Source: an uncultured Bacilli bacterium (GTDB taxonomy: Bacteria > Bacillota_I > Bacilli_A > RF39 > UBA660). From it: a stretch of DNA of 64,000 bases. Below the pieces are notes generated by a model that was not told where the DNA came from, made no database searches, and saw only the letters and a program-made list of their open reading frames with translations. The stretch is taken from NCBI GenBank assembly GCA_934089255.1, contig CAKOJI010000001.1, forward strand, positions 14,572 to 78,571, in the 5' to 3' direction. The translations under genes and the position numbers were made by a program. Within the stretch, counting starts at the first letter, position 1; every line of letters begins with the position of its first letter. Below are positions 7,107-58,569 of the stretch, piece by piece.

Positions 7107-7107
7107 T

Positions 7108-15912: not shown

Positions 15913-16084
15913 ACAAAATATAATATAATTTCTATAGAAAGAGAAGATTTTTTATGGAAGATATCGAACACTAAAGTTCAGGAGATATTAATTTATCTTC
16001 TTTTTCTTTACTTTTACTTGACAAATTTATGTCTAATAAGTTACAATTATTATGTAAATATAGTTAAAGAGAGTAGGTTAATAT

Positions 16085-16852: not shown

Positions 16853-16861
16853 TAAAGTAAG

Positions 16862-16905
16862 TCCCCTATCTTTATTTTAAAGAAGAATAGGGGTTCTATT
16901 TTTAT
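16862..16905 (+). terminator. rho-independent terminator
   Basis: CCCCTAT...ATAGGGG stem + TTCTATTTTT. Confidence 0.55.
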
Positions 16906-17255
16906 AAATATATATATATAATATTTAGTATTATTATACTTAGTATTATATTTATATTAATTAAAAAGATTACGTAGAAAAATAACACCCTATATTACAT
17001 ATAAAAAAGTAATTATTAAATAAAAATATTATTAGTATAAAATTAATATATAATAATAAATATGAAGATTTAAGTAATATAATATAACGTTAAACGTATA
17101 AATTCTTTATCTATTATGTTAAATTAAGAACTTCATATAATATATATTATGTTAACTTCTATATTTTAAATAAAAAGATGATTAGTTGATAATTAAAACT
17201 ACACCATCTTTTTTTATTTATAATTAATAAGTTTTATAACCTGTACAATATTAAA

Positions 17256-18011: not shown

Positions 18012-18043
18012 AATTAATCACAATAAATTATATGTTTTTATAG

Positions 18044-18697: not shown

Positions 18698-18781
18698 AAA
18701 ACACCACCATAATATTAGCCAAATATTACCATTATATATATTAGTTATAGTTACATAATAATAGTGGGAGGTAAATAATTT

Positions 18782-18895
18782 ATGGCTAAAAATTCTGCTA
18801 GAAATAAAGCTAGAGAAACTGAAAAAAATTCAAGTTGTAAAAACAGTGAAAGAGCAAAAAATAATGCTAGATGTTCTAAAAATAGTGCTCGTTAA
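18782..18895 (+). CDS. small basic protein (37 aa), possible spore protein
   Basis: GGGAGG RBS 8 nt before ATG. MAKNSARNKARETEKNSSCKNSERAKNNARCSKNSAR. Followed by a terminator hairpin. Confidence 0.45.
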   Translation: MAKNSARNKARETEKNSSCKNSERAKNNARCSKNSAR

Positions 18896-18916
18896 TTAAC
18901 TCTAGTTAAATTCCTA

Positions 18917-18952
18917 AAGAACTATTGATTTAATAATAGTTCTTTTATTTTT
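18917..18952 (+). terminator. rho-independent terminator
   Basis: AAGAACTATTGATTTAATAATAGTTCTT + TTATTTTTT. Confidence 0.55.
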
Positions 18953-18987
18953 TATAATATCATAAACATTCAAATTTGCAAGAAAAA

Positions 18988-19854
18988 CTAATTTCTAGGA
19001 AAATATTCCATATAATCACTTTTTAACTTTTGATTAGATAAATGAGTATATATTTGAGTAGTACTTATACTTTCATGGCCTAAAAATTCTTGTATAATTC
19101 TTAAATCTGCACCATTTTCTAACATATGAGTTGCAATACTATGTCTTAATGTATGAGGAGAAACATCTTTTTTTATATTAGCTTCTAACGTCCTTTTTTT
19201 TAACATTTTAAAAACGCCTTGCCTAGTCATTTTTTTACCATGATTATTTAAATAGACATAATTATTTTGTTCTTTTTTAACTAAACAATGTCTATAATCT
19301 TTTACATATATTTTTAAGTATTTAATTGCAGTATCGTTAATAGGGACAATTCTTTCTTTACTACCCTTCCCCATTATTCTAACAATACAATCGTTTAAAT
19401 CAATATTTTTAAATTCTAAATTTACAAGTTCACTTATTCTTAATCCTGTTGCATATAATAGTTCTAATAATGATTTATTTCTAGCGCTGAATGCATCTTT
19501 AATTTCAATATTTAATAATTTATCTATTTCATCTATAGTTAGATAAGTGGGTAAATGTTTTTTTAACTTAGGACTATCAATTAATAATATAGGATTTTCT
19601 TTTAACATTCCAATTTTTATATAATAATTATAAAATGTTTTAAAACTACTTAGGTAATTGCTAATACTACTTGATTCTAAATTTAAACTAGAAATAAAAT
19701 GCTCTATATCTTTGCTACTTAATTTTAATAAATCTTTATTTATATTATTTGATAAAATACTTAAATTATTTTGATAAGTATTAATAGTATTTTTAGAATA
19801 ATTTAAATCCATTTCTAAATATAATAAAAAATCATTTATATAATTGTCATTCAT
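18988..19854 (-). CDS. tyrosine recombinase XerC/XerD family
   Basis: C-terminal HTLRHSIATHMLENGADLRIIQEFLGHESISTTQIYTHL (R-H-R-Y catalytic core), 288 aa. Confidence 0.8.
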   Translation of the reverse strand: MNDNYINDFLLYLEMDLNYSKNTINTYQNNLSILSNNINKDLLKLSSKDIEHFISSLNLESSSISNYLSSFKTFYNYYIKIGMLKENPILLIDSPKLKKHLPTYLTIDEIDKLLNIEIKDAFSARNKSLLELLYATGLRISELVNLEFKNIDLNDCIVRIMGKGSKERIVPINDTAIKYLKIYVKDYRHCLVKKEQNNYVYLNNHGKKMTRQGVFKMLKKRTLEANIKKDVSPHTLRHSIATHMLENGADLRIIQEFLGHESISTTQIYTHLSNQKLKSDYMEYFPRN

Positions 19855-20086
19855 AGTATCATCTTCTTTAACTTATTAAAATTATACCAAATGACTTTCT
19901 TTTAAACAAGATATTGGACAATATTATTATTCAAACAAAAAAATATAAAACAATCATCATTAAAGATTTAAATACCTGTGAATTACTTTTATTATACATA
20001 GAAGTCTGATAATTTTACATAAACATAAATAAATGAATGACTTTTAATAATAAAATTGATAAAATAAATATAGAAAGTGTGATTAT

Positions 20087-21286
20087 ATGGAATTACTTGC
20101 TAATAAAATAAGGCCTACTAAATTAGATGAAGTTATTGGACAAACTCATTTAGTTGGAGAAAATAAAATATTATATAATTTAATAAAAAATAAACGTATT
20201 TATTCTATGATACTTTATGGTAAACCTGGCATAGGTAAGACTACTATTGCAAACGTTATTGTAAATGAAATTAATAAACCGTATAGATTTTTAAATGCAA
20301 CAACTAGTAAAATAAATGATTTTAATATAATAATAGAAGAAGCTAAAATGAATGGTGAAATGATAGTAATAATAGATGAAATACATCGTATGAATAAAGA
20401 TAAACAAGATATATTATTACCTTACTTAGAAAACGGTTTAATTATTCTTATAGGACTTACTACGTCAAATCCGTATCATAAAATAAATCCTGCTATAAGA
20501 AGCAGATGTCAAATATTTGAACTTAAGGAATTAACTAGTGAAGATATTGTTAAAGGATTAACTAGAGCTTGTACATTCTTACCAGATATTAAAATAGATG
20601 ACGAATCTTTAAGAATAATTGCAAATACTAGTAGTGGCGATTTTAGATCTGCTATTAATTTACTTGAAGTTGCTTACTACTCTACTAATGATAAAATCGT
20701 AACAATAGATATATTGAAATCTATAAATAGAAAAACGGTACTTTTTGCTGATAAGAACGAAGATGGTCACTATGATTTATTGAGTGCATTTCAAAAAAGT
20801 ATAAGAGGTAGTGATCCTGATGCTGCAGTTTATTACCTAGGGAGATTAATTGAAATTGGGGATTTAGATAGTATTTATAGAAGAATGAGCGTAATAGCAT
20901 ATGAAGATATAGGACTTGCAAACCCTTCAGTTGGACCAAAAGTTATGGCTGCAATTCATGCAAGTGAACTTGTTGGACTTCCAGAAGCTAGAATTCCCCT
21001 TTCAGTAATTGTTATTGAACTTGCATTATCACCTAAAAGTAATAGTGCTATTTCTGCTATTGATATGGCATTAAATGATATTAGAAAAGGAAATACCGGT
21101 AATGTACCAAATCATATAAAAACAAATTCAAAAGATTATAAATATCCCCATATATATCCAAAATATTGGGTTAAACAACAATACTTACCAGATAACATAA
21201 AAAATAGAAAATATTATAATCAAAAAATAAATAATTATGAAAATAATTTAAATAAAATTAATAAAGAAATGAGGAATGAAAATTGA
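20087..21286 (+). CDS. rarA: replication-associated recombination protein A (AAA+ ATPase)
   Basis: MELLANKIRPTKLDEVIGQTHLVG...ILYGKPGIGKTTIANVI. Confidence 0.85.
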   Translation: MELLANKIRPTKLDEVIGQTHLVGENKILYNLIKNKRIYSMILYGKPGIGKTTIANVIVNEINKPYRFLNATTSKINDFNIIIEEAKMNGEMIVIIDEIHRMNKDKQDILLPYLENGLIILIGLTTSNPYHKINPAIRSRCQIFELKELTSEDIVKGLTRACTFLPDIKIDDESLRIIANTSSGDFRSAINLLEVAYYSTNDKIVTIDILKSINRKTVLFADKNEDGHYDLLSAFQKSIRGSDPDAAVYYLGRLIEIGDLDSIYRRMSVIAYEDIGLANPSVGPKVMAAIHASELVGLPEARIPLSVIVIELALSPKSNSAISAIDMALNDIRKGNTGNVPNHIKTNSKDYKYPHIYPKYWVKQQYLPDNIKNRKYYNQKINNYENNLNKINKEMRNEN

Positions 21287-22260
21287 AAACTATAGGAATT
21301 ATAGGAACAGGGGCATATGGTTTAGGAATTTCTTTATCACTACTAAAAAAATGTGATAATATACATATGTGGGTAGAAAGTAAAGAAAGATGCGAATTTT
21401 TAAATAATAATAAAAAAAGTGCTAATATACTACCAAATATAGAAATACCAGATAATATTGATTTTAGTACTGATTATGAGTATATTTTAAAAAGTTCAAA
21501 CATTATATTCATAGCAGTTAGTGCAAAATTTATAGATCCAGTAACTAAAGAAATTGCAAAATACAATATTAAAAATAAACACTTCTGTATACTAAGTAAA
21601 GGTATTGAACAAAATAGTTGTGCCTTTGTAACTGATGTATTTAAAAGAAATATAAAAACTAAAAATGTTTCTGTGATATCTGGTCCATCTTTTGCAATAG
21701 ATGTTGCTAATAATATGCCAATAGGACTTTCTTTAGCTAGTAAAAATAATAAAACAATGTCAATTATTAAAAGAGTATTATCAAATGATAGAATTAAACT
21801 TAGAACTACAACTGATGTAATTGGTGTGGAACTTTGTGGTAGCATTAAAAATGTTATTGCAATAGCAAGTGGTATTTTAGAAGGATTAGGTTATACTGAA
21901 TCAACAAGAAGTTTCTTAATTACAGAATCTTTACACGATATTAAATCTTTAATATATGGATTAGGTGGTAATAAAAAAACTATACTTTCTTTTGCAGGAG
22001 TTGGAGATTTATTATTAACAGCAACTAGTACTAAATCAAGAAACTATTCTTATGGAATATTAGTTGGAAAAAAAGAATTTGATAAAGCTAAAAAATACTT
22101 AGAAACTAATACTGTTGAAGGTTATTATACACTACATTCAATATATCAATTAATTAAGAAAAAGAAAATAGATATGCCTATTATTAATTTAATATATGAT
22201 ATAATAATAAATAATAAAGAACCAGAAAAATTAGCAGAATTTTTAATAAAAAAAGACTAG
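21283..22260 (+). CDS. gpsA: NAD(P)H-dependent glycerol-3-phosphate dehydrogenase
   Basis: MKTIGIIGTGAYG Rossmann motif plus GSIKNVIAIASGILEGLG; TTG start overlapping the rarA stop. Confidence 0.85.
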   Translation: MKTIGIIGTGAYGLGISLSLLKKCDNIHMWVESKERCEFLNNNKKSANILPNIEIPDNIDFSTDYEYILKSSNIIFIAVSAKFIDPVTKEIAKYNIKNKHFCILSKGIEQNSCAFVTDVFKRNIKTKNVSVISGPSFAIDVANNMPIGLSLASKNNKTMSIIKRVLSNDRIKLRTTTDVIGVELCGSIKNVIAIASGILEGLGYTESTRSFLITESLHDIKSLIYGLGGNKKTILSFAGVGDLLLTATSTKSRNYSYGILVGKKEFDKAKKYLETNTVEGYYTLHSIYQLIKKKKIDMPIINLIYDIIINNKEPEKLAEFLIKKD

Positions 22261-31349: not shown

Positions 31350-33503
31350 TTATTTTATAGTGTAAGGATTTGTTTTTGTTCCATTTCCACTAGAAATTTG
31401 TATTCCTGATTTTAAATTTATTGTAGGTCTAAAAGTAGCTTCAGATTGAACAGAATATCCCAAAGATACATCAAAATTACCTTCATCCCCATATGTAAAT
31501 ACATAATCGTTCCAAGCAATATCAAGATAAACATTAGGAGAAATAGACCACCAAATTAATTTATTATTTTTCGCATAATTATTCAGCAAATAATGAGTGT
31601 AATTAGGTGCATCAGTAGTGCCTGCAAAAGACATTTCATCTGCTGTTAATGTTCCTACATATATTTCAGTATTATCATTATATTTATTTATTTTTGTTCC
31701 TGTACAGATTAGTGACGGCTTCTTATTTGTATAAATTCGTGTATTTGTTGCATAACAATAATCAGTATTCTCATTATAAAAACTACAAGAAGCGCCATTG
31801 TCATCAAAACATAAATTATTTGTTTTTAAATAATTGCTTACTGATTTACCAGTTCCTACTTTTGTTCCTAACATGGTTTGGAAATTTTTTAATGAATCAA
31901 AAAGTCCAACAAATCCATCTTCCTTTCCACCTGTATTATTTAAAAAGTCAAGAGATTTACAATCACTAGCTCCTTCATAACCATATACAATAGTATTTCC
32001 ATCACTCCAGTTACCAGTGTATGAAGAACTATTACATTCTGCACTTCTATCTTCTAATATTAACTTTGTAGAACCATCACCTTCAATTCTTACAATTTTC
32101 CAACACATTCCTGCAAAATTTACATAATTATCTTTAACGTCGCCTCTATAATAATAACTTGTTCCATTATCGTCTGGAGTTATACTTAAGGTACTCTCTC
32201 TAGATTCTGTTTTTAATGAACTACTACTTATTGTTGAATATTTTATAGTAGTTGTTATATCAGAAACATTAGTTGATATTTTATATATAAAATTTTGATT
32301 TTGAGTATCTGATAAAGTTGGTTTATCATAACTCCGTACTGCATATTTTCCTACTAAATTACTAACCATTGATGTTGTATATTTACTAGTTGCAACTATT
32401 GGATTTACCAAAGTAAATTTGCCAGTATTTTCATCAACTGTATAATCATCTGCATATGAAATATAATAATTGGTTGCACTACTCCATGATGAAGTGAATG
32501 ATGTTGGATCAGTTCCTTTTAAAACTTTTGAGGAAGATTCTTCAGCAGGTTTAGTTTTAGGTGTTTTTAAAAACTCTGTTCCATTTGTTTTATTTTTTGC
32601 ATTAGTTAATATATTATAAGCAAGTGTTCCTTCTTCAAATGGCATATAATCTTTTACATCACCTATATCAGTTGTTAATGTACTTGATATATTTGTTATA
32701 TTTATACTTATTGTTTGTGTATCACTTGTTACTGTTATCACATCTCCATTTACACTAGATGTAGAACCTTTATTGATTGTTATTTGTTTACTTCCTTTTA
32801 TTGTTCCTTTAGAATCTTTTACATATAAAGTATGAACTCCTGGTTCTACTGCTGGTATAAAATATTTGTTATCTCTTATTTGACTTGTTTTTGGATTACT
32901 TTGCATTTCTACATAGTCTCCGCTTGTTGCATTTGTAACATTACCAGTTATATCAACTATATCTGCTAAGTTATATATTTGTACTTTTGCAGATATGGTT
33001 TTATTCATATCTTCACTTTGATCTATATTCATTTCTTTATAGACTACTTTTAATTCATAACTTTGTGTTTCATTTACATCTATATTATTTGTTACAAGCA
33101 TTCCATTTTGTGTTGGAAATGATGTTTCAGTTTTACCATTACAAGTCTTTCCACTCACACTACTTGTACAAGTTAAAGTATATACCATATCACTTGTTCT
33201 ACTTAGTGTATTTACTAATTCTTCTAAATATACTGCATAGTTGTTTACAGTTGCATTTCCTTCATTTTTAACTGTAAACGTTTTAGTATCTATTGTTGTA
33301 CCAGGCTGTATTTTTTCTGCAGTTATATCCCCGTTTCCATCTCCGTATGTTAATTTTAAATCTGCTGTTGTAACACTTATAGATTTAGTATTTGTGTTAC
33401 CTTGTATTCTAGTTAAAAAGTATGCATATGTTAATCCTACAAGTATTAGTAACACTATAAATATTCCTGTTACACTTATTATAATCTTTTGTTTTCTATT
33501 CAT
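31350..33503 (-). CDS. large secreted protein: SipW-cognate-type signal, TasA/camelysin-like N-domain, shared C-terminal module (paralog P1)
   Basis: MNRKQKIIISVTGIFIVLLILVGLTYAYF resembles the SipW-cognate class signal (GGGT[FW]A[AF]F pattern). Following segment LKLTYGDGNGDITAEKIQPGTTIDTKTFTVKNEGNATVNNYAV is TasA-like. C-terminus YYYRGDVKDNYVNFAGMCWKIVRIEGDG...GNGTKTNPYTIK. GGAAGGTGAG RBS. Confidence 0.7.
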   Translation of the reverse strand: MNRKQKIIISVTGIFIVLLILVGLTYAYFLTRIQGNTNTKSISVTTADLKLTYGDGNGDITAEKIQPGTTIDTKTFTVKNEGNATVNNYAVYLEELVNTLSRTSDMVYTLTCTSSVSGKTCNGKTETSFPTQNGMLVTNNIDVNETQSYELKVVYKEMNIDQSEDMNKTISAKVQIYNLADIVDITGNVTNATSGDYVEMQSNPKTSQIRDNKYFIPAVEPGVHTLYVKDSKGTIKGSKQITINKGSTSSVNGDVITVTSDTQTISINITNISSTLTTDIGDVKDYMPFEEGTLAYNILTNAKNKTNGTEFLKTPKTKPAEESSSKVLKGTDPTSFTSSWSSATNYYISYADDYTVDENTGKFTLVNPIVATSKYTTSMVSNLVGKYAVRSYDKPTLSDTQNQNFIYKISTNVSDITTTIKYSTISSSSLKTESRESTLSITPDDNGTSYYYRGDVKDNYVNFAGMCWKIVRIEGDGSTKLILEDRSAECNSSSYTGNWSDGNTIVYGYEGASDCKSLDFLNNTGGKEDGFVGLFDSLKNFQTMLGTKVGTGKSVSNYLKTNNLCFDDNGASCSFYNENTDYCYATNTRIYTNKKPSLICTGTKINKYNDNTEIYVGTLTADEMSFAGTTDAPNYTHYLLNNYAKNNKLIWWSISPNVYLDIAWNDYVFTYGDEGNFDVSLGYSVQSEATFRPTINLKSGIQISSGNGTKTNPYTIK

Positions 33504-33700: not shown

Positions 33701-35089
33701 TTATTCTATAACGTAAGGATCTTCTTTAGTACCTAACCCTGTAACTGTAACATTATTTTTTATATTTATTACAGGTCTAACATTTAATTCGTTTTCTACA
33801 TCACTTGCTTCTATACCCGTCTTACTATTAAATCCTACTACTTTAGCACAATTATTATCAAAACTATATGGTGTCATAGTCCACCAATTAGTACCATTAT
33901 TTAAATAAGTTTCTGTTTTATTTGAAGTAGCATAATACAATTCTTCAGCACTTAATAATCCAATATTAAGTTCATATTTAGAAAAATCTAAATCATTACA
34001 AATTAATATTTTATCATTAGAAGTGTATTTGTATAATGTTTCATTTTTACCATACCCTAAATAAGTTTCTATAATACCTTTATTACCACAATAACTATTT
34101 TTTACAATACTATTATAATTAATAAGTTCTGTACTATAAAAATTATCTAACGTATTCTTTATAACACTATTATTAACATTTTTATGTGTTAATTCATAAC
34201 TACTACTATTTACATCCCCATACGTATAACCAACATAAGCATTATCATTATTTAATGAATTAAATTTACTTAATCCAATAGTATCATCTAATATTAAACG
34301 TACAGTATCATTACCATTAATTCTAACTATTCTCCATAACTTATCAGCTATCAAAACATAATTATTATTAACGTTTCCCTTATAATAATAAGTTACTCCA
34401 TAATTATCTTCTATTTTATATAAATTAGATTCAATATTACTATCAATATCTAATTCAGGATTAATTGGTAATTCTACTATATTTCTTGATTTTAATATAG
34501 TTTCAATAGTAGGTAAAATATTTGTTTTATTATAATTTATTTCATTAATATATTTATTTATAATTTTATATTGTAAAGATTCTTTATTATTTTCATATAA
34601 TTCATTACTATATTCTATATCATATTTATTAACACTATTTATATTATTTATTTTTAAATAGTTATCTATATCATAATTTAATGTAGTATAATTACTATCT
34701 AATTTAAAATCAACTACTATATCTTTATCACTTAAATTACTTACTTTTAAATATATATCTTTTTCTTCTGATTCATTTAAAGAACCATATATATTGTTAT
34801 TAGTAGTATTAACTACTGATACAGAAAAATTATCATTAGATGTAGCAATTAAGCCATAATTAATACTAACTTTACTTGTATTTTTTATTTTTTCTTTAAT
34901 AACGTATTCTTTATTAGCTTCCAAATTTAAACTAGTAATACTTAAATCAGTAGTTATAGTAGGTACTGTAGACGTTACTACATCTTTTTCTTCAGTTTGG
35001 ACAAATAAACTATAACTTAAATTTAATACATAACAACCTAATATCATAACAATTGCACTTAGAAAATATATTTTTTTAGTCTTGTTCAT
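33701..35089 (-). CDS. secreted protein with SipW-cognate-like signal and the shared C-terminal module (P3)
   Basis: MNKTKKIYFLSAIVMILGCYVLNLSYSLF..., then YYYKGNVNNNYVLIADKLWRIVRINGND...GLGTKEDPYVIE at the C-terminus. AGGAG RBS. Confidence 0.65.
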   Translation of the reverse strand: MNKTKKIYFLSAIVMILGCYVLNLSYSLFVQTEEKDVVTSTVPTITTDLSITSLNLEANKEYVIKEKIKNTSKVSINYGLIATSNDNFSVSVVNTTNNNIYGSLNESEEKDIYLKVSNLSDKDIVVDFKLDSNYTTLNYDIDNYLKINNINSVNKYDIEYSNELYENNKESLQYKIINKYINEINYNKTNILPTIETILKSRNIVELPINPELDIDSNIESNLYKIEDNYGVTYYYKGNVNNNYVLIADKLWRIVRINGNDTVRLILDDTIGLSKFNSLNNDNAYVGYTYGDVNSSSYELTHKNVNNSVIKNTLDNFYSTELINYNSIVKNSYCGNKGIIETYLGYGKNETLYKYTSNDKILICNDLDFSKYELNIGLLSAEELYYATSNKTETYLNNGTNWWTMTPYSFDNNCAKVVGFNSKTGIEASDVENELNVRPVINIKNNVTVTGLGTKEDPYVIE

Positions 35090-40965: not shown

Positions 40966-41559
40966 TTATTCATATTCATTATTTAATTTAGGTATTTCAA
41001 TTCGAGGTGTTAAAAATAATTTTATTATATTTATTATTATATTAGTAACTATCCATACTATAAAAACCATACTAGATAATTCAAATATACTTAATAATAA
41101 ATCCTGTTCATATATTTTTGTAATAGTACTTAAATCAACAGTAATATCTTTCATAGCAATAACATTTGTTATAAATAAGAATTCTATAAAAATAGCAACC
41201 CATATATTTATATTTTTTTGTACACCTTCATATTTTTTAATAGAATATATTTGAAAAAATATAGTAATTAATATCATAGTAAAATACTCTATTAAAGAAG
41301 GAAAATAAGCTAGTTTAACTAAATTAGTTATATAAGTATCAACTATATTAAGTAACGGTTTATAATATTCAAAAGTACCATATAAAAGTATTAATATAAT
41401 TGTTATAGCATATAACCTCTTAGTACTTTTACTATTATTACCATATATTAAATCTATTAATATTATTAAAACTAATAATAATATCATAAATATAAAAGAA
41501 TTATCTTTTATAAAACTATATATTAAATTAATTTTATTTAATATAGTAGTATCAACCAT
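40966..41559 (-). CDS. polytopic membrane protein, unknown function
   Basis: 197 aa, 5-6 TM segments. Confidence 0.45.
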   Translation of the reverse strand: MVDTTILNKINLIYSFIKDNSFIFMILLLVLIILIDLIYGNNSKSTKRLYAITIILILLYGTFEYYKPLLNIVDTYITNLVKLAYFPSLIEYFTMILITIFFQIYSIKKYEGVQKNINIWVAIFIEFLFITNVIAMKDITVDLSTITKIYEQDLLLSIFELSSMVFIVWIVTNIIINIIKLFLTPRIEIPKLNNEYE

Positions 41560-41573
41560 AATATCACCCCATT

Positions 41574-42197
41574 TTATTCTTTATTTATTAATACACCAAC
41601 ATAAACCGTTTGTGTTTCATTATTATTTTTTGTGCACGTAATTAACGTTACATTAGATTTATCTTTATATCTTTTTATTTCTACTTCTCCAGTTTTTGGT
41701 ACTTCATAGATATTCCCTATTTGATAAGTATATTTAATATTATTATATTCTATAATAACTACATCCCCAACAGATAAATTATGTAATTTATTAAAATATG
41801 AAACACTAGAATTACCAGAATGTGCTGCAAATATAACATTACCATTTTCTGTATCAGGATAATCTGATGCACTTAATATACTTATATTTTTATTTATAGT
41901 ATTATATGGACTATCTTTTTTAGTAAAACCTTTTTTTAAATTTATTTTAGGTATAGATAGATACCCAATATAAACACTCTCATTATTTTCATTAAAACTA
42001 TAACTAGTATCTGGTTTATCCCCTGAATTATTCTCATTTAATGATATATCATCATTACTAATTGGTTCATTATAATATAATTCATTCATATAGTCATATA
42101 CCATAATTTTCTTCTCTTTAAAATACTCAGAACCAAAAATTACTATTCCAACTATAAGAATTATAAAACTAAATATTATTTTTAGATTTCTTGACAT
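41574..42197 (-). CDS. sortase-fold transpeptidase-like protein (His and TLITC Cys present, canonical Arg not evident)
   Basis: N-terminal TM anchor; YIGYLSIPKINLKKGF beta-strand; FAAHSG His; VTLITC catalytic Cys motif. Overlaps upstream substrate gene by 29 nt. Confidence 0.6.
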   Translation of the reverse strand: MSRNLKIIFSFIILIVGIVIFGSEYFKEKKIMVYDYMNELYYNEPISNDDISLNENNSGDKPDTSYSFNENNESVYIGYLSIPKINLKKGFTKKDSPYNTINKNISILSASDYPDTENGNVIFAAHSGNSSVSYFNKLHNLSVGDVVIIEYNNIKYTYQIGNIYEVPKTGEVEIKRYKDKSNVTLITCTKNNNETQTVYVGVLINKE

Positions 42198-43848
42198 TTA
42201 ATATTACCAAATATAAACCAGTACTTATTACTATAGCTCCTACAATATATTTTAAAGTTGCATTTAAACTAGTTATAGGACAATCAATAACATTACTTAA
42301 CCACTCTACAGTAGTTGTAGTATTAACTTCATTAGTTATTTCTATATCTTCATCATCTACATAATATGTATTATTTTCTTCATCATATTTTATATCATTA
42401 TTATTATCATCAATAATAGTATCTTGATAATTCTTTTTAGATAAACTTATACTATTTGCAAACACATAATCATCTTCATATTTTACTAATAAAGAGCCAT
42501 TATTAGTTACTTTAAAATATAATTTATCTATTTTATTTTTAGTATCAATAATATAATAAATTCCTTCTGTTAATTCAATTTCATAATTAGTATTATTACT
42601 TCTATAACTATTAACTAAAACTCCAGAATTAGAATAAATTTTTATAATATTAGCACTATCATCTAAATCATTATATATGTTAATTTTTCTTTTTTTATCT
42701 TCTTCATTATTATTTATATTACTATTTTCTTTAACATCAACATATTGAATACTATTTGTATCTTTTACTTCAAATTTTGTCTTAGTTGGTAAATTATAAT
42801 TATTAGTATTAGTTTTATTTACTAAAGTATAAACTCCTTTACCTAATACATTTTTTAATTCTACATAATTATTTCTAGTAGTAAAAGTTTGTACTAAATT
42901 ATCACTATAACAAGTACTATTAGTACAGTCACCACTATATATATTGTATGTTAAACCACTTATAAAATTTTCATTATCATTTAGAATACTAATTCTAACA
43001 TTAGTACTACCAATTCCTTTTATATTAGCAGGGATACTTGCTTCCACGTTATTATAATTATTAGTATAGACTCTACCATATATTACACTATCATTACCAT
43101 AATTTGAATAACTATAAGTAGTATTATTATAAGCACTTCCGCTACTATAAATTTCAAAATCTTTTTCATTTATAGTAGTTAAACTTGAAACAGGTATTCT
43201 AACTTGGAATGATCCTTCTCCGTTACTACTTACTGTATTATTAATTATTGAACTACTTGTTGGAGCATTGTATAGACTAACACTTGGAGTATTTCTTAAA
43301 TTATTTGTTCTAACATTAATTACATTTGAATAATAATAGTTTCCATTTTTCGTAAATGTTACATCTTTATTTATGAAATCAATAGTACTATTATTTTTTC
43401 CATATATTTTAGCATCATTAAATAACTTATTTATAAAATAACAAAAAGTATCTGTAGTATTAGAAGAAATAGTTTCTTTTAAAGTACTACTTATATTATT
43501 AGTTCCCTTTAAATAATCTTGATACATAAGTATAGCAGCTTGTGCTATATAATAATTTTTGTAACTACTATTTGTTACATTACTATTATTGATTATATAA
43601 GTAAATCCTGGATCTGTTACTACTGCATTAGTTAATGTAGTGCTTGTATTAAAATATGTACCATAATTTAATACATAAACATTATAACCACTAGCTTGAT
43701 TATAATAAATAGGTAACCCACTTATATACTCATAACTATTACCTGTATTATAAACAGATATACTATTTGGATAACTTGCCGCATTTACTGAAGTTGCAAA
43801 ACATATTATAGATAATATGCTTAATAAAATTTTAGAAAATCTTTTCAT
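42169..43848 (-). CDS. secreted Asn/Tyr/Ser/Thr-rich surface protein with C-terminal TM + KKSK tail
   Basis: Sec signal ...ATSVNA|AS. C-terminus ...CPITSLNATLKYIVGAIVISTGLYLVILNVKKSKNNI has sorting-signal architecture but no LPXTG. AGAGGTG RBS before MKRFSKILL. Confidence 0.6.
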   Translation of the reverse strand: MKRFSKILLSILSIICFATSVNAASYPNSISVYNTGNSYEYISGLPIYYNQASGYNVYVLNYGTYFNTSTTLTNAVVTDPGFTYIINNSNVTNSSYKNYYIAQAAILMYQDYLKGTNNISSTLKETISSNTTDTFCYFINKLFNDAKIYGKNNSTIDFINKDVTFTKNGNYYYSNVINVRTNNLRNTPSVSLYNAPTSSSIINNTVSSNGEGSFQVRIPVSSLTTINEKDFEIYSSGSAYNNTTYSYSNYGNDSVIYGRVYTNNYNNVEASIPANIKGIGSTNVRISILNDNENFISGLTYNIYSGDCTNSTCYSDNLVQTFTTRNNYVELKNVLGKGVYTLVNKTNTNNYNLPTKTKFEVKDTNSIQYVDVKENSNINNNEEDKKRKINIYNDLDDSANIIKIYSNSGVLVNSYRSNNTNYEIELTEGIYYIIDTKNKIDKLYFKVTNNGSLLVKYEDDYVFANSISLSKKNYQDTIIDDNNNDIKYDEENNTYYVDDEDIEITNEVNTTTTVEWLSNVIDCPITSLNATLKYIVGAIVISTGLYLVILNVKKSKNNI

Positions 43849-43877
43849 ATCACACCTCTTTTTTCTATTTGGCACCT

Positions 43878-47263: not shown

Positions 47264-48481
47264 TTAAGAACAATTATTGATTAACTCATAAGGCTCATCT
47301 TTAGTACCTTCACTATTTGTAAAATTATAACAATTTTTCAATTTAATAATTGGCACTATATATAACTTAACATCTTTACAAACGCTATATTCAAACCTTC
47401 TATCTACATTATGTGGATTCACAAATAATAAATCATCATTACCTTCTTCAGCAGATGCAATGTATTGAAATAATGCGTAAGTTCCCACTGATAAAATATA
47501 TTCATCATCATTTTTTGTATATTTACTAAGTAAATCTATTATATAATTTCCATCATTACTATTAGCATTTTTAAGTGTTTCTACATCAATTAGTCCAATA
47601 TTCGTTTCATAAGTTTGATATCTAGTATAAGATGATTTATCTGGCATATATGTTTCAAATACTTTTTGTCTAAATTTTTCAGGATAATTTGAATACTCAT
47701 TTATATATGTATGCCAATTATTATTATAATCAAAATAGGTATCACCAGCTTTGAAAACATCTATACCAGTAACATATTTTATATTTAATTTACTATCATT
47801 TATACTCATATTTGTACATTCTCCTAAAACACTCCAATCATTACTTGTACAACTTTTACTTACAAGTTCTTTGGGAGTTAATTTTATTACACTTTCTTTA
47901 TCATTTGCTATTAAAAAGACATTTCCATTAGTAATTTCTACTATACGCCATAATCTTTCATTTAATTTCACAAAATTTTTAGGATTTTCTCCTTTTGCTA
48001 CATAGTCTTCCTTATTTGTTATAGCATTATTAGAAGAAACGCCATTATCTCTAGGACATATATATATTACTTTGCTACCATCTAGTTCTTTTAAATCCCA
48101 TTTTTTAAACACTTCTATTCCTATAACATTATTTTCACAATCAAATTTTCCAGCTGTTGCTAATACTGCATTAGATAACATAAAGTAATTTTCTTTATAA
48201 TCTACTTTCATATCATCTTTTATTAACCCTTCATTTTTTAATGTTTCCAAAGTTACTAAAGCAGCTTTCGCATTTTTATTTAAATTAGTTGTGATTTCTT
48301 TATGATTTGAAACATAAACTTGTAATGCATTTTCTAACTTTTTTTCATTTGCTTTCAATATATTAATTTCTCTTGTTTTATTAGTTTTTAAAACTACAAC
48401 GGTTACGGAAACACCTATAATTACAATTAAACTAATACATATAATAATTTCAATTAATGTAAAACCTCTTTTATTCTTCAT
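47264..48481 (-). CDS. type IV prepilin-like protein with shared C-terminal module (P4, 405 aa)
   Basis: MKNKRG|FTLIEIIICISLI class III signal. Later ...LNERLWRIVEITNGNVFLIANDKE...EGTKDEPYELINNCS. Confidence 0.7.
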   Translation of the reverse strand: MKNKRGFTLIEIIICISLIVIIGVSVTVVVLKTNKTREINILKANEKKLENALQVYVSNHKEITTNLNKNAKAALVTLETLKNEGLIKDDMKVDYKENYFMLSNAVLATAGKFDCENNVIGIEVFKKWDLKELDGSKVIYICPRDNGVSSNNAITNKEDYVAKGENPKNFVKLNERLWRIVEITNGNVFLIANDKESVIKLTPKELVSKSCTSNDWSVLGECTNMSINDSKLNIKYVTGIDVFKAGDTYFDYNNNWHTYINEYSNYPEKFRQKVFETYMPDKSSYTRYQTYETNIGLIDVETLKNANSNDGNYIIDLLSKYTKNDDEYILSVGTYALFQYIASAEEGNDDLLFVNPHNVDRRFEYSVCKDVKLYIVPIIKLKNCYNFTNSEGTKDEPYELINNCS

Positions 48482-48915: not shown

Positions 48916-50346
48916 TTATTCACTTATGATATATGGATCAGTTTTAGTTCCATTCCCACTTAGAACTTTTATATTATCATTAATAACATAGGCAACTCTA
49001 ACGTATGTATACTGAAGAGCACTATGAACACCATCTTCTCCTGGACTTTCTGCTATATCCACATCGAAAGTTAATTCATCTTCAATACTACCATAATCAA
49101 ATAAATTTAAATAATCAACTTCATATTTTATATGTTTGGGATTATATATACCAGATCTTAAATATTCTTGATATGTAAGTAGTCCAAAATCAGATGATAC
49201 TTTAGTTTCGCTATTGCATTTAAAATTTGTTAAATTATTTTTATTAATATTAGTGTCATAACTATCGCCACACCATTTATAATTTTTATTTATATATTTT
49301 GTTAACATATTTTGTATATTATCTTCATAATGAGTTTTAAGTGGTTTATAAACATATTCATATACAGGACTACTTAATGTTACAGTTTCTTGACAATATT
49401 CCCTACTACTAGTAGTTTCACATACTAAAACTTGTTCTGTACTGTCACTCCAACTTTCTATCTCCTTTGTATCATTGTTTGCTTTACAAGAACATCTCGT
49501 TGATTTATTAGGATAAAGATGAGTTATTGAATATTTAGAAGTATCAATTCTACCATAATTTGAATTTCCACTGTAACTAGTAAAAAAATATACAGAAGCA
49601 CCATTAGTAAGAACATTATTATTAGATAAAAGAATTTTTTCATCTTCAATAATCTTAATACCATCATTCTCAGTAGTTCTAACTATTCTAAATAACTTAT
49701 CTAATCCTTCAAATTTAATATAGTTATTATCAACTTTTCCCTTAAAATAATAAATATCTTCTAAATTTTCATCATCACTAATATTTTTTCCATGTGATAA
49801 ACACAAACTATTAGTTTCTAAACTATTTTCACAGTTAGTATTATATCCTTGTTTTAACATCTTATTAATTAAAAGTGATTCATCACTACTACCACTTTTA
49901 TTAGAATTATAAGGACATAAATAAACTACATTATCTTTTTTTGTTTCCCAATTAACTGTATACTCAAGCACATTAGCTCCACATTCTTTATCTGTAGAAC
50001 CTTTTATAGAATTAGTAATCCAAACTAAATAAGATTTATCATCTTCTAATTTATATTCTTTTTCTAAAGTTTTATATAATTTTTCATCTACATAACCTTT
50101 ATTTACTAATTCACTTACATTAATTCTAGCACCTTTACCACCATTATTTATTCCATACTCATATGTATTTCCTTGATCATCTTTTTCAGTAGCAATATAA
50201 ACATTTGCTGCTTCTAATATTTTCTTAGTTATATTACTATAATCTTTATTTTTAGTAAAAATTACTATACTTATGGTAGATATAATAGCAATTAAACTAA
50301 TACATATAATAATTTCAATTAATGTAAAACCTCTTTTATTCTTCAT
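48916..50346 (-). CDS. type IV prepilin-like protein with shared C-terminal module (P5, 476 aa)
   Basis: MKNKRG|FTLIEIIICISLI; C-terminus YYFKGKVDNNYIKFEGLDKLFRIVRTTENDG...GNGTKTDPYIISE. Confidence 0.7.
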   Translation of the reverse strand: MKNKRGFTLIEIIICISLIAIISTISIVIFTKNKDYSNITKKILEAANVYIATEKDDQGNTYEYGINNGGKGARINVSELVNKGYVDEKLYKTLEKEYKLEDDKSYLVWITNSIKGSTDKECGANVLEYTVNWETKKDNVVYLCPYNSNKSGSSDESLLINKMLKQGYNTNCENSLETNSLCLSHGKNISDDENLEDIYYFKGKVDNNYIKFEGLDKLFRIVRTTENDGIKIIEDEKILLSNNNVLTNGASVYFFTSYSGNSNYGRIDTSKYSITHLYPNKSTRCSCKANNDTKEIESWSDSTEQVLVCETTSSREYCQETVTLSSPVYEYVYKPLKTHYEDNIQNMLTKYINKNYKWCGDSYDTNINKNNLTNFKCNSETKVSSDFGLLTYQEYLRSGIYNPKHIKYEVDYLNLFDYGSIEDELTFDVDIAESPGEDGVHSALQYTYVRVAYVINDNIKVLSGNGTKTDPYIISE

Positions 50347-50694
50347 AGTATCCCTACTTACTTATTTTATTATTTTTTTCTTCAAAATTTATTTCTTTAT
50401 TTTCTATCTTTTCCTTAACATCAGTAAGTTCTTCTTTATCCATTTCATCTATTACTTCATCTTCTTTATGTTCTTTTGCTTTTTTTAAAAACAATTCTTT
50501 TTCTTCTTCACTTAATATACCATCTTTAAAATTTATCATACCTATTCTCCTTCTAAAATAATTATACTATATTTATTATTTATTTTCTAGGTATAGTATG
50601 TAAATATACTCTTTTTAATTCTTCATTGGACACATGAGTATATATACTAGTAGTAGATAAAGATACATGACCTAAAAGTTCTTGAACACTTTTT
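50289..50694. repeat. 406-bp direct repeat copy B
   Basis: See copy A. Confidence 0.85.
50354..50539 (-). CDS. acidic 61-aa protein (copy B)
   Basis: Identical to 48489..48674. Confidence 0.55.
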   Translation of the reverse strand: MINFKDGILSEEEKELFLKKAKEHKEDEVIDEMDKEELTDVKEKIENKEINFEEKNNKISK

Positions 50695-51449
50695 AAATCA
50701 CATCCCTCATTTAATAACATAGTAGCAAAAGAATGTCTAAACGTATGTGGTGTAACTAATAAATCACTACTAGACTTTAATAATACCTTATCAATAATAT
50801 CTCTAACTCCTCTTGTAGTTAATTTATTACCTAAATGATTCACTAATAAATATTCACACTTTTTATTTTTTAAAATAGAATCTCTTACTCTTAAATAATT
50901 ATTCAAACTATCTATAGCATAACTTCCTAAATATACTATACGTTCTTTATTACCTTTACCAAGTACTTTAATTTCTCGATTTGTAATATCAATATTACAT
51001 AATTTTATATTAACAAGTTCATTAACTCTACACCCAGTACAAAGTAATAATTCAAATATACACCTATTCCTCATACCTAAATTACTATTAGTATCTATAC
51101 TATCTAATATCTTAACATATTCATCATATTTAAAATAATTTGGTAACTTTTTTTCTTTACTCATACTATTAACTAATTTAAATGGATTATTTTTAACAGA
51201 TTTATTTTTTATTAAATAATCATAATACATTCTTAAACTACTTAAACTTCTATTTATACTAGATGGTTTATGTGTTTGTTTCAAATAAGATATATAACTT
51301 AAAACATCTTTATATTGAATACTATTATAACTCTTATTAACATTTTTTAAATATTCTTCAAACTTATTAATATCTATCTCATAATTTAATACAGTATTAT
51401 CACTATATTTTTTAATACTAGTTAAATAATTTAAAAATTCTTCTAACAT
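50580..51449 (-). CDS. tyrosine site-specific recombinase (Xer/integrase family), directly upstream of pilin cassettes
   Basis: [39 protein letters not shown] catalytic C-terminus; 289 aa. Confidence 0.8.
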   Translation of the reverse strand: MLEEFLNYLTSIKKYSDNTVLNYEIDINKFEEYLKNVNKSYNSIQYKDVLSYISYLKQTHKPSSINRSLSSLRMYYDYLIKNKSVKNNPFKLVNSMSKEKKLPNYFKYDEYVKILDSIDTNSNLGMRNRCIFELLLCTGCRVNELVNIKLCNIDITNREIKVLGKGNKERIVYLGSYAIDSLNNYLRVRDSILKNKKCEYLLVNHLGNKLTTRGVRDIIDKVLLKSSSDLLVTPHTFRHSFATMLLNEGCDLKSVQELLGHVSLSTTSIYTHVSNEELKRVYLHTIPRK

Positions 51450-51511
51450 ATAATCACTTACCTTAAAATAATTATAATTTAAAAGATAAATTTATGCAAA
51501 TTAAAAGAAAA

Positions 51512-52360
51512 CTATTTAGAGTCTTCTTTAGGTCTTTTTATTAACATTTTACCACTTTGATATAGGGTTCTTTTTAATTCGTTCTCTGTTATAGGTTTAA
51601 TATAATCATGTCCATCAACTACCCCATCACTTGTATCAAATTTATAATCCTTTAATATTTCTTTACAAGATCTTATTACATCTTCTTCAGTTAAGAATTC
51701 TTCTTCATCAAATAATACTTCTACCGTCTCTTTTCTTTTAAATACATTTTTATCATCAATATCTAAGAAAGAAAGTGGTCTATTTTCATTTATAATGCCA
51801 TTTATATACATTGTCTTAATAACAAATTCTCTTATAGCAGAATATTTTGTTTTTACTTCATTATTCTTAAGTTTTGAATAAAACTCAGCATTTATAAAAC
51901 TAGTTACTAAACTACTTAAATATTCTCTCTCATCATAACCAGAAATATCATATATATTATCAATTTTAGATACAGCATAAGTATATAATCCATTTACTTT
52001 AGGCAAAAAACCATCTTTATTTTTATATTTTTTAGCATACATTTTACTTAATATTAACAATTTTTTAGGATTATCTTTATACTCTCTAAACATTTTATTA
52101 ACGTAATCAATACTAATCTTATTTTTAGAATCACTAAATAATAATATATCTCCATCATATATAATCTTTTTTTTAGATTTATTATAAACGTACACTTTAT
52201 ATATATTATCACTTATACCATTATTAAGTTTTATATCAGCAATTAATTCTCTCTCACTATCAAATTTAGTTGTATAATTATCAATACTTTGTAAACTATC
52301 TAAATCTCCAATTAATTTAATTTCTTTATTTTTTATATAACATAAACTATATTTATTCAT
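51512..52360 (-). CDS. hypothetical protein (282 aa)
   Basis: ORF only. Confidence 0.4.
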   Translation of the reverse strand: MNKYSLCYIKNKEIKLIGDLDSLQSIDNYTTKFDSERELIADIKLNNGISDNIYKVYVYNKSKKKIIYDGDILLFSDSKNKISIDYVNKMFREYKDNPKKLLILSKMYAKKYKNKDGFLPKVNGLYTYAVSKIDNIYDISGYDEREYLSSLVTSFINAEFYSKLKNNEVKTKYSAIREFVIKTMYINGIINENRPLSFLDIDDKNVFKRKETVEVLFDEEEFLTEEDVIRSCKEILKDYKFDTSDGVVDGHDYIKPITENELKRTLYQSGKMLIKRPKEDSK

Positions 52361-52418
52361 ATATACCCCCTATTGATACTGAAATTATATCAAAAAAGTA
52401 CAATTTTGTCAAAAAAGA

Positions 52419-52437
52419 CAATAAAAAAAGTCCTTCG
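52419..52437 (-). terminator. terminator hairpin downstream of tRNA-Ala
   Basis: AAGTCC-TTCG-GGACTT (UUCG tetraloop) followed by a T-run on the minus strand. Confidence 0.55.
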
Positions 52438-52455
52438 GGACTTAATTCGTTTAAT

Positions 52456-52532
52456 TGGTGGAGAATAAGGGACTCGAACCCTTGACCCCCACGGTGCAAG
52501 CGTGATGCTCTAGCCAACTGAGCTAATTCCCC
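52456..52532 (-). tRNA. tRNA-Ala (anticodon UGC)
   Basis: Reverse complement GGGGAATTAGCTCAGTTGGCTAGAGCATCACGCTTGCACCGTGGGGGTCAAGGGTTCGAGTCCCTTATTCTCCACCA: cloverleaf with G3:U70, anticodon TGC, encoded CCA. Confidence 0.9.
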
Positions 52533-56406: not shown

Positions 56407-58569
56407 CTATGATATTACGTAAGGATTTGAAATAGTTCCGTTTCCACCAGTTATTTGAACTCTAGACAAGAGAGTTACTGCGGAACGAGAATAGACATCG
56501 TCATAATTGACTGAACTGCTGCCAAGAAATCCAACTTCAGAAAGTTGATAAGCGTCACCGATACCACTATTAGCAATATAGTAAAAAGAAGAAAGCCCCC
56601 ACCACGTTAAGGGATTATTCCTTGTATAACTATTCATTAAATAATGAGTAGAATTAAGTGAACCAGTAGCACCTGCAAACGACATTTCATCTGCTGTTAG
56701 TGTTCCTACATACATATCTGAATCATCTTTATATTTATTTAATTTTGTTCCTTTACACACTAGTGATGGTTTTTTATCTACTTCTATTCTTTTATAAGCA
56801 CCATAATATTCATCAGTATACCAGCCATTTGTTGCTTCATTTTCTTCATATACAATATTATCATTATCATCGAACCCATAACTTTCAGTACTAGCCACGC
56901 TATGATCAAAACACCAGTTGTCTACTTTCAAATAATCACTTAATGATTTATTAGTTGTTAATTTAGAACTTAATGTCGTTTGAAAACTCTTTAATGAGTC
57001 TGCTAATCCTCCAGAATAATTTAAAAAGTCTGCTTTACCATTTGTATCATAACCAAATGCAACTTTTGTTCCATCACTCCAATTTCCAGTATATGACGAA
57101 CTATTACATTCTGTATTTCTATCTTCTAATATAAGTTTTGTAGAACCGTCTCCCTCAATTCTTACAATTCTCCAACACATTCCTGCAAAGTTTACATAGT
57201 TATCTTCTACTCCACCTCTATAATAATAACTTGTTCCATAATCATCTGCAGTTACGCTTAATTCTTTTTCTGTAGATTTTTGATCTGCAATTATGTTTGC
57301 ATATTTTATGTTAGAAGTTATATCAGATACATTAGTTGATATTTTATATATATAATTTTGATTTTGAGTATTTGTTATTGTTGGTTTATTAGTACTCCAT
57401 ACTGCATATTTTCCTGCTAAACTACTTGCCAGTGATGTTGTATATTTACTAGTTGCAACTGTTGGATTTACTAAAGTAAATTTACCAGTTGTTTCGTTTA
57501 CAGTATAATCATCTGCATATGAAATATAATAATTTGTTGCGTTCCATAATGTTGAGGTAAATGATGTCGGAGCAGTTCCTTTTAAATATAAAATTGAACT
57601 TGTTTCTTCCGCAGGATTTGTTTTAGGGGTTTTTAAAAACTCTGTTCCATTTGTTTTATTAATTGCATTAGTTAATATATTATAAGCAAGTGTCTCTTCT
57701 TCAAATGGCATATAATCTTTTACATCACCTATATCAGTTGTTAACGTACTTGAAATACTCGTTATATTTATGCTTATTGTTTGTGAATCACTTGTTACTG
57801 TTATCACATCTCCATTTACACTAGATGTAGAACCTTTATTTATTGTTATTTGTTTACTTCCTTTTACAGTGCCTTTAGAATCTTTTACATATAGTGTATG
57901 AACTCCTGGTTCTACTGCTGGTATAAAATATTTGTTATCTCTTATTTGACTTGTTTTTGGCGTACTTTGCATTTCTACATAATCTCCTGTTGCTGCATTT
58001 GTTACTGTTCCTGTTATATCAACTATGTCTGATAAGTTATATATTTGTACTTTTGCTCCAATAGTCTTATTCATGTCTTCACTTTGATCTATATTCATTT
58101 CTTTATAGACTACTTTTAATTCATAACTTTGTGTTTCGTTTACATCTATATTATTTGTTACTAGCATACCATTTTGTGTTGGAAATGATGTTTCAGTTTT
58201 ACCATTACAAGTTTTTCCACTTACACTACTTGTACAAGTTAAAGTATATACCATATCACTTGTACGGCTTAATGTATTTACTAACTCTTCTAAGTACACT
58301 GCATAATTATTTACAGTTGCATTTCCTTCATTTTTAACTGTAAACGTTTTAGTGTCTATTGTAGTACCTGGTTGTATCTTTTCTGCAGTAATATCACCAT
58401 TACCGTCTCCGTATGTTAGTTTAAGATCTGCTGTTGTAACACTTATAGACTTAGTATTAGTATTTCCTTGTATTCTTGTTAGAAAGTATGCATAAGTTAA
58501 TCCTACAAGTATTAGTAACACTATAAATATTCCTGTTACACTTACTATAATTTTCTGTTTACGATTCAT
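56407..58569 (-). CDS. large secreted protein, paralog P2 of 31350..33503
   Basis: Signal and TasA-like N-domain are ~95% identical to P1 over the first ~300 aa (of ~480 aa of colinear similarity) and ~80% over the remainder up to ~480. C-terminal ~230 aa diverge but keep the WRIVRIEGDG...GNGTISNPYVIS module. Confidence 0.7.
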   Translation of the reverse strand: MNRKQKIIVSVTGIFIVLLILVGLTYAYFLTRIQGNTNTKSISVTTADLKLTYGDGNGDITAEKIQPGTTIDTKTFTVKNEGNATVNNYAVYLEELVNTLSRTSDMVYTLTCTSSVSGKTCNGKTETSFPTQNGMLVTNNIDVNETQSYELKVVYKEMNIDQSEDMNKTIGAKVQIYNLSDIVDITGTVTNAATGDYVEMQSTPKTSQIRDNKYFIPAVEPGVHTLYVKDSKGTVKGSKQITINKGSTSSVNGDVITVTSDSQTISINITSISSTLTTDIGDVKDYMPFEEETLAYNILTNAINKTNGTEFLKTPKTNPAEETSSILYLKGTAPTSFTSTLWNATNYYISYADDYTVNETTGKFTLVNPTVATSKYTTSLASSLAGKYAVWSTNKPTITNTQNQNYIYKISTNVSDITSNIKYANIIADQKSTEKELSVTADDYGTSYYYRGGVEDNYVNFAGMCWRIVRIEGDGSTKLILEDRNTECNSSSYTGNWSDGTKVAFGYDTNGKADFLNYSGGLADSLKSFQTTLSSKLTTNKSLSDYLKVDNWCFDHSVASTESYGFDDNDNIVYEENEATNGWYTDEYYGAYKRIEVDKKPSLVCKGTKLNKYKDDSDMYVGTLTADEMSFAGATGSLNSTHYLMNSYTRNNPLTWWGLSSFYYIANSGIGDAYQLSEVGFLGSSSVNYDDVYSRSAVTLLSRVQITGGNGTISNPYVIS

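Follow-up and report, generated by a model that had tools for sequence, protein, structure and literature searches.

The window analysed here is a 64,000-nucleotide stretch of DNA from an uncultured Bacilli bacterium (RF39; UBA660; assembly GCA_934089255.1, contig CAKOJI010000001.1, positions 14,572 to 78,571), and our subject is a sortase locus on its reverse (-) strand. A gene for a 559-residue secreted protein, which we call the adhesin (42169..43848, with its ATG at 43848), overlaps the start of a gene for a 207-residue sortase (41574..42197, placed by its open reading frame and profile matches). A third gene, for a 197-residue polytopic membrane protein (40966..41559), starts 14 nt past the sortase stop. 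In the sortase, Gln196 stands where the catalytic Arg is expected. We think it probable, on balance, that this is an active Cys-His-Gln sortase that cleaves a CPIT|S signal in the adhesin and anchors this one dedicated protein to the cell wall. Judged by its sequence, the enzyme looks like part of a large, apparently undescribed Gln-for-Arg sortase branch and not like a broken gene. Because the His-Cys-Arg set is incomplete, the enzyme is by this measure a variant and not a canonical member of the family. The locus as a whole would be a three-gene surface-display module, consisting of a TIE-type adhesin, its sortase and a polytopic membrane protein with a Tyr-Phe-Pro (YFP) motif.

The sortase and its Arg position

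The 207-residue protein matched the Pfam Sortase family (PF04203; 55.8 bits, cut-off 26.6, E=4.8e-15) and TIGR01076 (58.2 bits, cut-off 39.35). A membrane helix at the N-terminus, IGYLSIPKINL, AAHSG (containing His126) and VTLITC (ending in Cys188) are all present, so the sortase signatures that an earlier note, made from the letters alone, had picked out are borne out. For none of the defined classes, A to F, did its score reach the NCBIfam cut-off. The best was for class C (NF033745, 69.8 bits against a cut-off of 160); the SrtD model (NF058671) gave 48.1 bits (cut-off 140), class D (NF033746) 38.9 (165), and the class E, GN and F models 34.6 (160), 21.2 (158) and 18.0 (166), respectively. 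These low class scores, the Gln clade and the conserved non-LPXTG signal described below all support one of the two alternatives offered in the earlier note, in which the enzyme belongs to a divergent class of sortase whose recognition motif is new.

An AlphaFold2 model made with 117 relatives as input (predicted local distance difference test score, pLDDT, 90.8) consisted of an N-terminal helix (residues 3-43) joined by a linker of poor order to a beta-barrel (78-206). Foldseek matched it to more than 50 sortase chains, among them structures of classes C, A and E, at a probability of 1.00, with a root-mean-square deviation of ~2.6 Å over ~133 residues. The linker (residues ~44-77) is unconserved and is followed by the catalytic domain (78-207). 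A 'KPDTS' string in the linker was considered as a pseudo-substrate or lid and rejected; it is confined to the three closest homologues, and we therefore read it as chance. In a family alignment of 117 diverse sequences, 33-70% identical to the query, both His126 (codon 41820..41822; just past strand 120-124) and Cys188 (codon 41634..41636; the last residue of strand 182-188) are present in 117/117.

No Arg follows Cys188 through to the C-terminus of the sortase. Strand beta8 (195-206) begins where canonical sortases have their catalytic Arg, and this position is taken by Gln196 (codon 41610..41612), which bears out the earlier note's report of a missing Arg. Column 196 of the family alignment is Gln in 116 of the 117 sequences and Asn in the other, and Arg occurs in none. 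The 120 closest relatives (58-97% identity) likewise lack the Arg, ending in ...TLITCTKxxxxTQT(V/I)Y(L/I)GELIxKE. An exhaustive HMMER search of 1.84 billion representatives at 50% identity returned 1,929 matches, of which 849 had E<=1e-10. Among the best 150 (E values from 6e-67 to 1e-27, 33-63% identity), all except one have C-x(4-8)-Q and then a hydrophobic strand; the exception, P0317, has Asn. A few members carry an Arg one or two residues earlier ('PRQ' in P0324, 'RENT' in P0317), and this is not conserved.

Alignment to known sortases, the check that the earlier note had proposed, revealed no properly placed Arg. HMMER alignments put the catalytic Arg of B. anthracis SrtA on Gln196, and addition with MAFFT of S. 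aureus SrtA and of the class D sortase from a C. perfringens plasmid did the same for theirs. A mis-registered Arg was rejected: when canonical sortases were aligned with phmmer, hmmsearch and MAFFT, no family member had an Arg in this column. The strand downstream pairs QTVYVGVLI with RYVVAGDLV and RLILKGELI. A truncated or frameshifted C-terminus was also rejected: more than 250 homologues end alike, and beta8 is complete in the model. Cys188 closes beta7 (182-188) and Gln196 opens beta8 (195-206) in the model, the same strand-end and strand-start geometry as Cys184 and Arg197 of SrtA (PMC11231552).

A second residue also marks the clade. Lys168 (codon 41694..41696), in a K-T-G170 signature, is Lys in 115/117 family members, and G170 is invariant (117/117); the corresponding column is Pro (xPxD) in the C. 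perfringens class D sortase and S. aureus SrtA. This makes Lys168 a candidate compensating basic residue. The conserved Arg of sortases hydrogen-bonds the bound signal and stabilises the oxyanion. In our proposal, the side-chain amide of Gln196 would take over this hydrogen-bonding role from the start of beta8, possibly assisted by Lys168, which may supply the charge. Replacement of Arg197 in SrtA by citrulline, a neutral isostere, reportedly keeps activity; if right, this result makes a neutral hydrogen-bond donor plausible.

The adhesin and its sorting signal

Near the C-terminus of the adhesin, the pentapeptide C523-P-I-T-S527 (42268..42282) has the form xPxTx. It is separated by a six-residue spacer from a 17-residue hydrophobic membrane segment (YIVGAIVISTGLYLVIL, 42199..42249, in a helix of residues 528-557 in the model), after which comes a basic tail, NVKKSKNNI (42172..42198, read from the sequence). 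The signal thus has the tripartite form of a cell-wall sorting signal. P524 and T526 are found in 52/52 homologues (45-97% identity), whose residues at position 523 are C44/T5/V2/A1 and at position 527 S44/D5/N2/A1; K533, Y534, G537 and G544 are invariant as well. Conservation in the block 521-540 reaches 0.83, against 0.41-0.44 in the stalk just upstream (461-500). Conservation of the tail may come in part from dual coding, as the same DNA encodes the start of the sortase. We predict that the sortase would cleave between T526 and S527.

The earlier note had correctly described an overlapping 559-residue secreted protein with a hydrophobic segment and a KKSK tail, and the signal peptide, the segment and NVKKSKNNI are all there. 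Its statement that no LPXTG/NPQTN-type motif precedes the segment does not hold, since the string that it quoted itself contains CPITS, with the Pro and Thr kept throughout. The cryptic LPXTG-like pentapeptide that it had allowed for in the substrate therefore exists. Compared with the LPXTG consensus (TIGR01167), only the P and T agree. In an hhalign comparison with the thioester-domain (TED) protein of the distant locus L021, in which the sorting signal alone was aligned (E=0.037), IDCPITSL of the window was placed on VEVPDTGY, and a distant homologue of the adhesin (P0208, 26% identity, with a SpaA domain) has a conventional VPPTG signal at its end. From this alignment and the motifs of the distant loci given below, we conclude that CPITS derives from a family motif resembling VPxTG. 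Across these substrates the residue after the scissile Thr appears, from the sequences, to be unusually free. There is a precedent for Ser at this position in B. subtilis, where YhcR, the substrate of the class D sortase YhcS, ends in LPDTS (PMC11231552).

The remainder of the adhesin comprises a signal peptide, a TED-like head, an immunoglobulin (Ig)-like stalk and a disordered linker. It matched no Pfam or NCBIfam family and has 88 homologues; at NCBI, one homologue carries the name 'hypothetical protein'. The Sec signal peptide (MKRFSKILLSILSIICFATSVNA, 43780..43848) is expected to be cleaved after VNA; the model has a helix at residues 2-18, and A23 is invariant. In the AlphaFold2 model (pLDDT 76 overall), the head (residues ~28-225, 43174..43767) is predicted at ~90. 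The beta-rich, CnaB/SpaA-like stalk (residues ~226-465, 42454..43173) is all-beta in the model and matched the pilins BcpA, SpaA and SpaD and CnaB2 of FbaB in Foldseek; its assignment also draws on the SpaA domain (PF17802) of P0208. The top Foldseek match of the whole adhesin was the B. anthracis TIE protein 6fwv (E=2.2e-21, 480 columns), followed by the thioester domain of E. faecium TIE86 (6fwy, E=1.6e-8) and then Gram-positive pilins. A search of the adhesin profile against PDB sequences gave noise and a weak CnaB2 match only.

The head resembles a TED and lacks its bond-forming Cys. BLASTP aligned it to the adhesin of the distant locus L025, which has Pfam TED and SpaA domains (E=1e-10), placing Y58-V59-L60 on YCL and YYIAQAAILMY on YYITQGAVWWY, so that AQxAILW corresponds to the TQxxΦW motif. 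TED motifs include a universally conserved [YFL]C-hydrophobic-hydrophilic Cys motif (PMC6194298). In the window adhesin YV59LN aligns with YCLE of the L025 TED, and column 59 is V/I/A/S/L/F, with Cys in 0/52 homologues. We therefore conclude that the head is a TED that has lost its thioester Cys. Two substitutes were rejected. A Cys136-Gln103 thioester shows no co-variation (eight sequences lack only the Gln and eight only the Cys), and Cys136 lies in a helix past the TQxxΦW-like motif; Gln215, as the thioester Gln, aligns with a Lys in the L025 TED and is not claimed. Within the stalk, Cys308-x4-Cys313 (GDCTNSTC, residues 304-313, 42922-42939) is invariant in 52/52 homologues, probably as a disulfide, which is unusual on the surface of a presumed anaerobe.

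In its TED head, Ig-like stalk and C-terminal anchor the adhesin is like the TIE adhesins (Class II TED proteins such as BaTIE, 6fwv; TIE86, 6fwy; and TIEpLS20). These are anchored by sortases and often encoded on conjugative elements (PMC6194298, PMC8092201), and one promotes conjugation in B. subtilis pLS20 (PMC8092201). The adhesins of the window clade differ from them in having a non-Cys residue (Val/Ile) at the position of the bond-forming Cys and CPITS in place of LPXTG, and the window adhesin has no sequence-level similarity to PDB entries.

The pilin-like stalk bears on another function for the enzyme, that of a pilus polymerase that joins copies of the 559-residue protein head to tail through Lys, in the manner of class C, and does not anchor monomers. 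Class C sortases gave the best class score and several of the best PDB matches (E. faecalis Ebp, 24rr; S. agalactiae SrtC1, 4d7w/3rbi; C. perfringens SrtC, 6ixz/7d6t). They share with the window enzyme an N-terminal membrane anchor, the TLxTC Cys and the conserved His; their substrates are of the SpaA/CnaB type, some with Val first (VPDTG, VPPTG), and VPxTG-type signals are known from pilins. Yet 69.8 bits is far from the class C cut-off, and the window enzyme differs from class C in its Gln for Arg and its single substrate, one gene per module. Its sequence contains no DP(F/W/Y) lid motif, and its linker is unconserved. It ends 19 residues beyond Cys188, with no C-terminal membrane helix. The adhesin, moreover, is nearer in architecture to monomeric TIE adhesins, as the 480-column match to BaTIE illustrates, than to pilins, and no YPKN-type pilin motif is visible in its sequence. 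We regard polymerization as quite improbable.

A three-gene module and its distant counterparts

The earlier note had described the unit as a pair. The linkage of adhesin and sortase held up; their isolation did not, as the third gene is syntenic with them. The order adhesin-sortase-membrane protein was kept in 14/14 genome loci, even with differing flanks. These loci come from species-representative gut metagenome-assembled genomes (MAGs; 12 'Bacilli', 1 'Tenericutes' and 1 'Muribaculaceae') with a G+C content of 20-29%. Housekeeping neighbours were 79-96% identical to those of the window, compared to 43-69% for the three module proteins, in keeping with surface functions that evolve quickly. 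A hydropathy scan of the third protein showed four to five hydrophobic segments; the protein also has invariant Y85-F86-P87 and W169, and 123 unnamed homologues. We infer that this YFP protein is an accessory factor of the sortase. The adhesin and sortase genes of the window share 29 nt, within which the segment 42172..42198 encodes both the adhesin tail and the sortase start, MSRNLKIIF, in two frames. An overlap of 23-29 nt recurs in the 13 loci in which both genes are intact and in the distant systems, and suggests translational coupling of adhesin and sortase.

We looked up eleven distant loci with Gln- or Asn-sortases (33-43% identity to the query). A secreted protein is encoded directly upstream of the sortase in 10/11, the exception being L023, which has no adjacent substrate gene. 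The upstream gene overlaps the sortase start in 9/10 and ends 7 nt before the sortase in L027. The complete upstream proteins are SpaA and/or TED adhesins, and in 9/10 a V-P-(N/D/I)-T-X motif near the end precedes a membrane segment and a basic tail: VPNTS (L015), VPDTL (L017), VPNTK (L018), VPNTG (L019, L025, L027), VPDTG (L021), VPITG (L022) and VPNTA (L026). L024 has only an ambiguous partial sorting signal. Downstream of the sortase in L015, L023, L024, L025 and L026 lie genes for longer homologues of the third protein, some of which have coiled-coil tails.

Three of these loci, L017-L019, are conjugative elements on metagenome contigs, with ParA/ParB, SSB, MobC, a relaxase and TrbL/TraC/TraG. 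Their sortase and adhesin genes sit between ParA/ParB and the SSB/MobC/relaxase/Trb-Tra genes, which suggests that their adhesins are mating adhesins. The other distant loci appear to be chromosomal. The Gln-sortases on the conjugative elements go without the third gene, which is therefore not needed for the core reaction. As a separate observation, L026 (3501-4190) encodes the sole family member that we saw with Asn at the Arg position (..TCTNNSTRENTIYIAE), and this sortase is flanked by the TED adhesin ending in VPNTA and by a YFP membrane protein.

These loci also bear on the second alternative of the earlier note, a degenerate or chaperone-like partner. Here a dead or weakened pseudo-sortase would bind or chaperone the adhesin, which would stay in the membrane, held by its C-terminal helix. 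Such decay would accord with the inactivation of characterised sortases by Arg substitutions, with the reduced genomes of these lineages and with the lost thioester Cys of the adhesin, itself a hint of degeneration. The pattern of conservation points the other way: over at least 150 clusters at 50% identity neither Cys188 nor His126 varies and Gln196 hardly does, the Pro and Thr of the signal are invariant, and conjugative elements keep a Gln-sortase beside adhesins with intact TED Cys motifs and VPxTG. Strong purifying selection on His126, Cys188 and Gln196 over 33-70% identity, with the kept xPxT, disfavours a degenerate partner. Taken with the pairing on conjugative elements, it argues for a working active site and against decay, and we hold a pseudo-sortase to be very doubtful.

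An active Cys-His-Gln sortase would work as follows. Sec would export the adhesin, and the hydrophobic segment with its NVKKSKNNI tail would hold it in the membrane. The membrane-anchored sortase would bind CPITS, and the Cys188 thiolate would attack the T526-S527 bond, with His126 as its acid/base partner. An amine of a peptidoglycan precursor would then resolve the thioacyl-enzyme, placing the adhesin on the wall with its thioester-less, TED-like head outward. The YFP membrane protein would act as an accessory factor of the sortase.

Several points weigh against this proposal. A recent (2026) paper states that all sortases share a His-Cys-Arg triad in which Arg is indispensable, and R200A abolished the activity of F. 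alocis SrtA (PMC13257024). The Gln side chain is shorter than that of Arg. The HMMER alignments to 4d7w (class C) and 4d70 (class D) stop at the beta7/beta8 loop or slip by one residue; we put this down to noise from the length of the loop, since the strand beyond it can be aligned as far as the C-terminus. All members of the Gln family come from uncultured MAGs or metagenomes. Lipid II as the acceptor is an assumption of the scheme, and the third protein had no Pfam or NCBIfam match and no detectable relative of known function.

The acceptor is also where a different outcome might lie. An active Gln-sortase could cut CPIT|S and pass the adhesin to a membrane or teichoic-type molecule, to the YFP protein or to water, in the last case releasing it. 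The dedicated polytopic membrane partner that travels with the chromosomal Gln-sortases would suit such an outcome, as would the position just past the cleavage site, which is unusually variable (G, S, A, D, N, K, L), and the partial, or partly reduced, peptidoglycan (wall synthesis) pathways of related gut Bacilli orders (PMC10868615). Against it, the window encodes peptidoglycan enzymes, namely an S11 DD-carboxypeptidase, FtsW/RodA and a MurJ/Wzx-type flippase, which contradict a wall-less host and make a peptidoglycan acceptor plausible. In addition, Gln-sortases on conjugative elements do without the third gene, and nothing in the third protein points to an acceptor or an enzyme. We consider such an outcome unlikely.

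Among known sortases, C. perfringens SrtD offers a parallel for the conjugative loci. A search of 72,556 plasmids (PLSDB) found no Gln-sortases; the sole matches were Arg-containing class D enzymes of this type (30-39% identity), and SrtD was also the second-best PDB match (4d70). It is encoded on conjugative (pCW3-like) plasmids near a SpaA isopeptide adhesin, as the Gln-sortases of L017-L019 are near theirs, but has the canonical Arg (..TCTNRAKQRLILKGELI) and no YFP membrane partner. Two further systems share single traits with the module. S. aureus SrtB-IsdC (NPQTN) is a dedicated sortase beside a single target with a private motif, and SrtB keeps its Arg. SafA of Actinomyces oris sets a precedent for genetic linkage between a sortase and a small membrane protein. 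We found no sequence relationship to either, and the YFP protein is polytopic.

More tentatively, the Gln-sortases might form a widespread class that has gone unrecognised (at least 149 of the best 150 clusters at 50% identity, and probably several hundred). Such a class would dispense with Arg through an invariant Gln and Lys168 and accept almost any residue after Thr (VPxT-G/S/A/D/N/K/L, CPIT-S). Its chromosomal form would need the YFP partner, and it would be the main means by which uncultured low-GC gut Bacilli, and their conjugative elements, display TIE adhesins. We give this broader view less than an even chance. A full-text literature search whose coverage lacked most subscription journals found no description of Arg-less sortases. 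Current labels read 'hypothetical protein' for relatives of the substrate and only a generic 'sortase' for the enzymes. The Gln clade would also show that, throughout one branch of gut bacteria, annotation by motif or profile overlooks the anchor signal as well as the class of the enzyme.

A naturally selected Gln clade would be a direct natural test of the job of the Arg, hydrogen-bond donation versus charge. If the YFP partner is indeed needed, this could mean an acceptor or a regulatory logic unlike lipid II-dependent sorting, and its conservation gives a starting point for finding an accessory function in the sorting of surface proteins. A relaxed post-cleavage residue together with VPxT/CPIT recognition may be of interest for sortase-based protein ligation. 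TIE adhesins on conjugative elements would tie the family to mating-pair formation and the spread of genes in the gut.

Layout of the locus and the wider window

The window has a G+C content of ~22%. For the adhesin, the ATG at 43848 (559 residues) is preferred over an upstream GTG at 43875 because of a ribosome-binding site, AAGAGGTG (43853..43860, (-) strand), read from the sequence 4 nt 5' of this ATG. A scan for promoters and terminators was uninformative in DNA of only 22% G+C: it gave 51 promoter-like sites, where 49 were expected, and not one terminator. An Rfam scan of the window found nothing besides one transfer RNA (tRNA), away from the module. On the 5' side the module is separated by ~600 bp from a gene for pyruvate phosphate dikinase; on the 3' side lie SepF, DivIVA and a RecD2-like helicase. 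A functional tie to sepF/divIVA was rejected: these genes are 3' of the module in only about half of the loci, and their adjacency is for this reason probably incidental.

Elsewhere in the window, the cumulative GC skew has its maximum at 16000-22000, where gene orientation also switches, with + strand genes up to 16852 and mostly - strand genes from 17256 on. A XerC/D-type tyrosine recombinase (18988-19854) lies within the region of the skew peak. The interval 16000-22000 looks like the replication terminus region.

Three proteins (47264-48481, 48916-50346 and 7078-9261) have a type IV pilin-like N-terminus (KRGFTLIEIIIC or KKGFTIIEIIVC), and the last of them adjoins a HerA-like ATPase (5352-7106). 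They may belong to a pseudopilin or competence-type system. A C-terminal end of the form G-x-GT-x-x-(D/N)-PY-x-I occurs in five large proteins (31350-33503, 33701-35089, 47264-48481, 48916-50346 and 56407-58569), which seem to be a paralogous surface-protein family; the two of these that were scanned gave no Pfam match. A second tyrosine recombinase (50580-51449) lies near a tRNA gene (52459-52532), beside an open reading frame resembling a Y-family polymerase, and this area (50580-52532) may be an integration hotspot.

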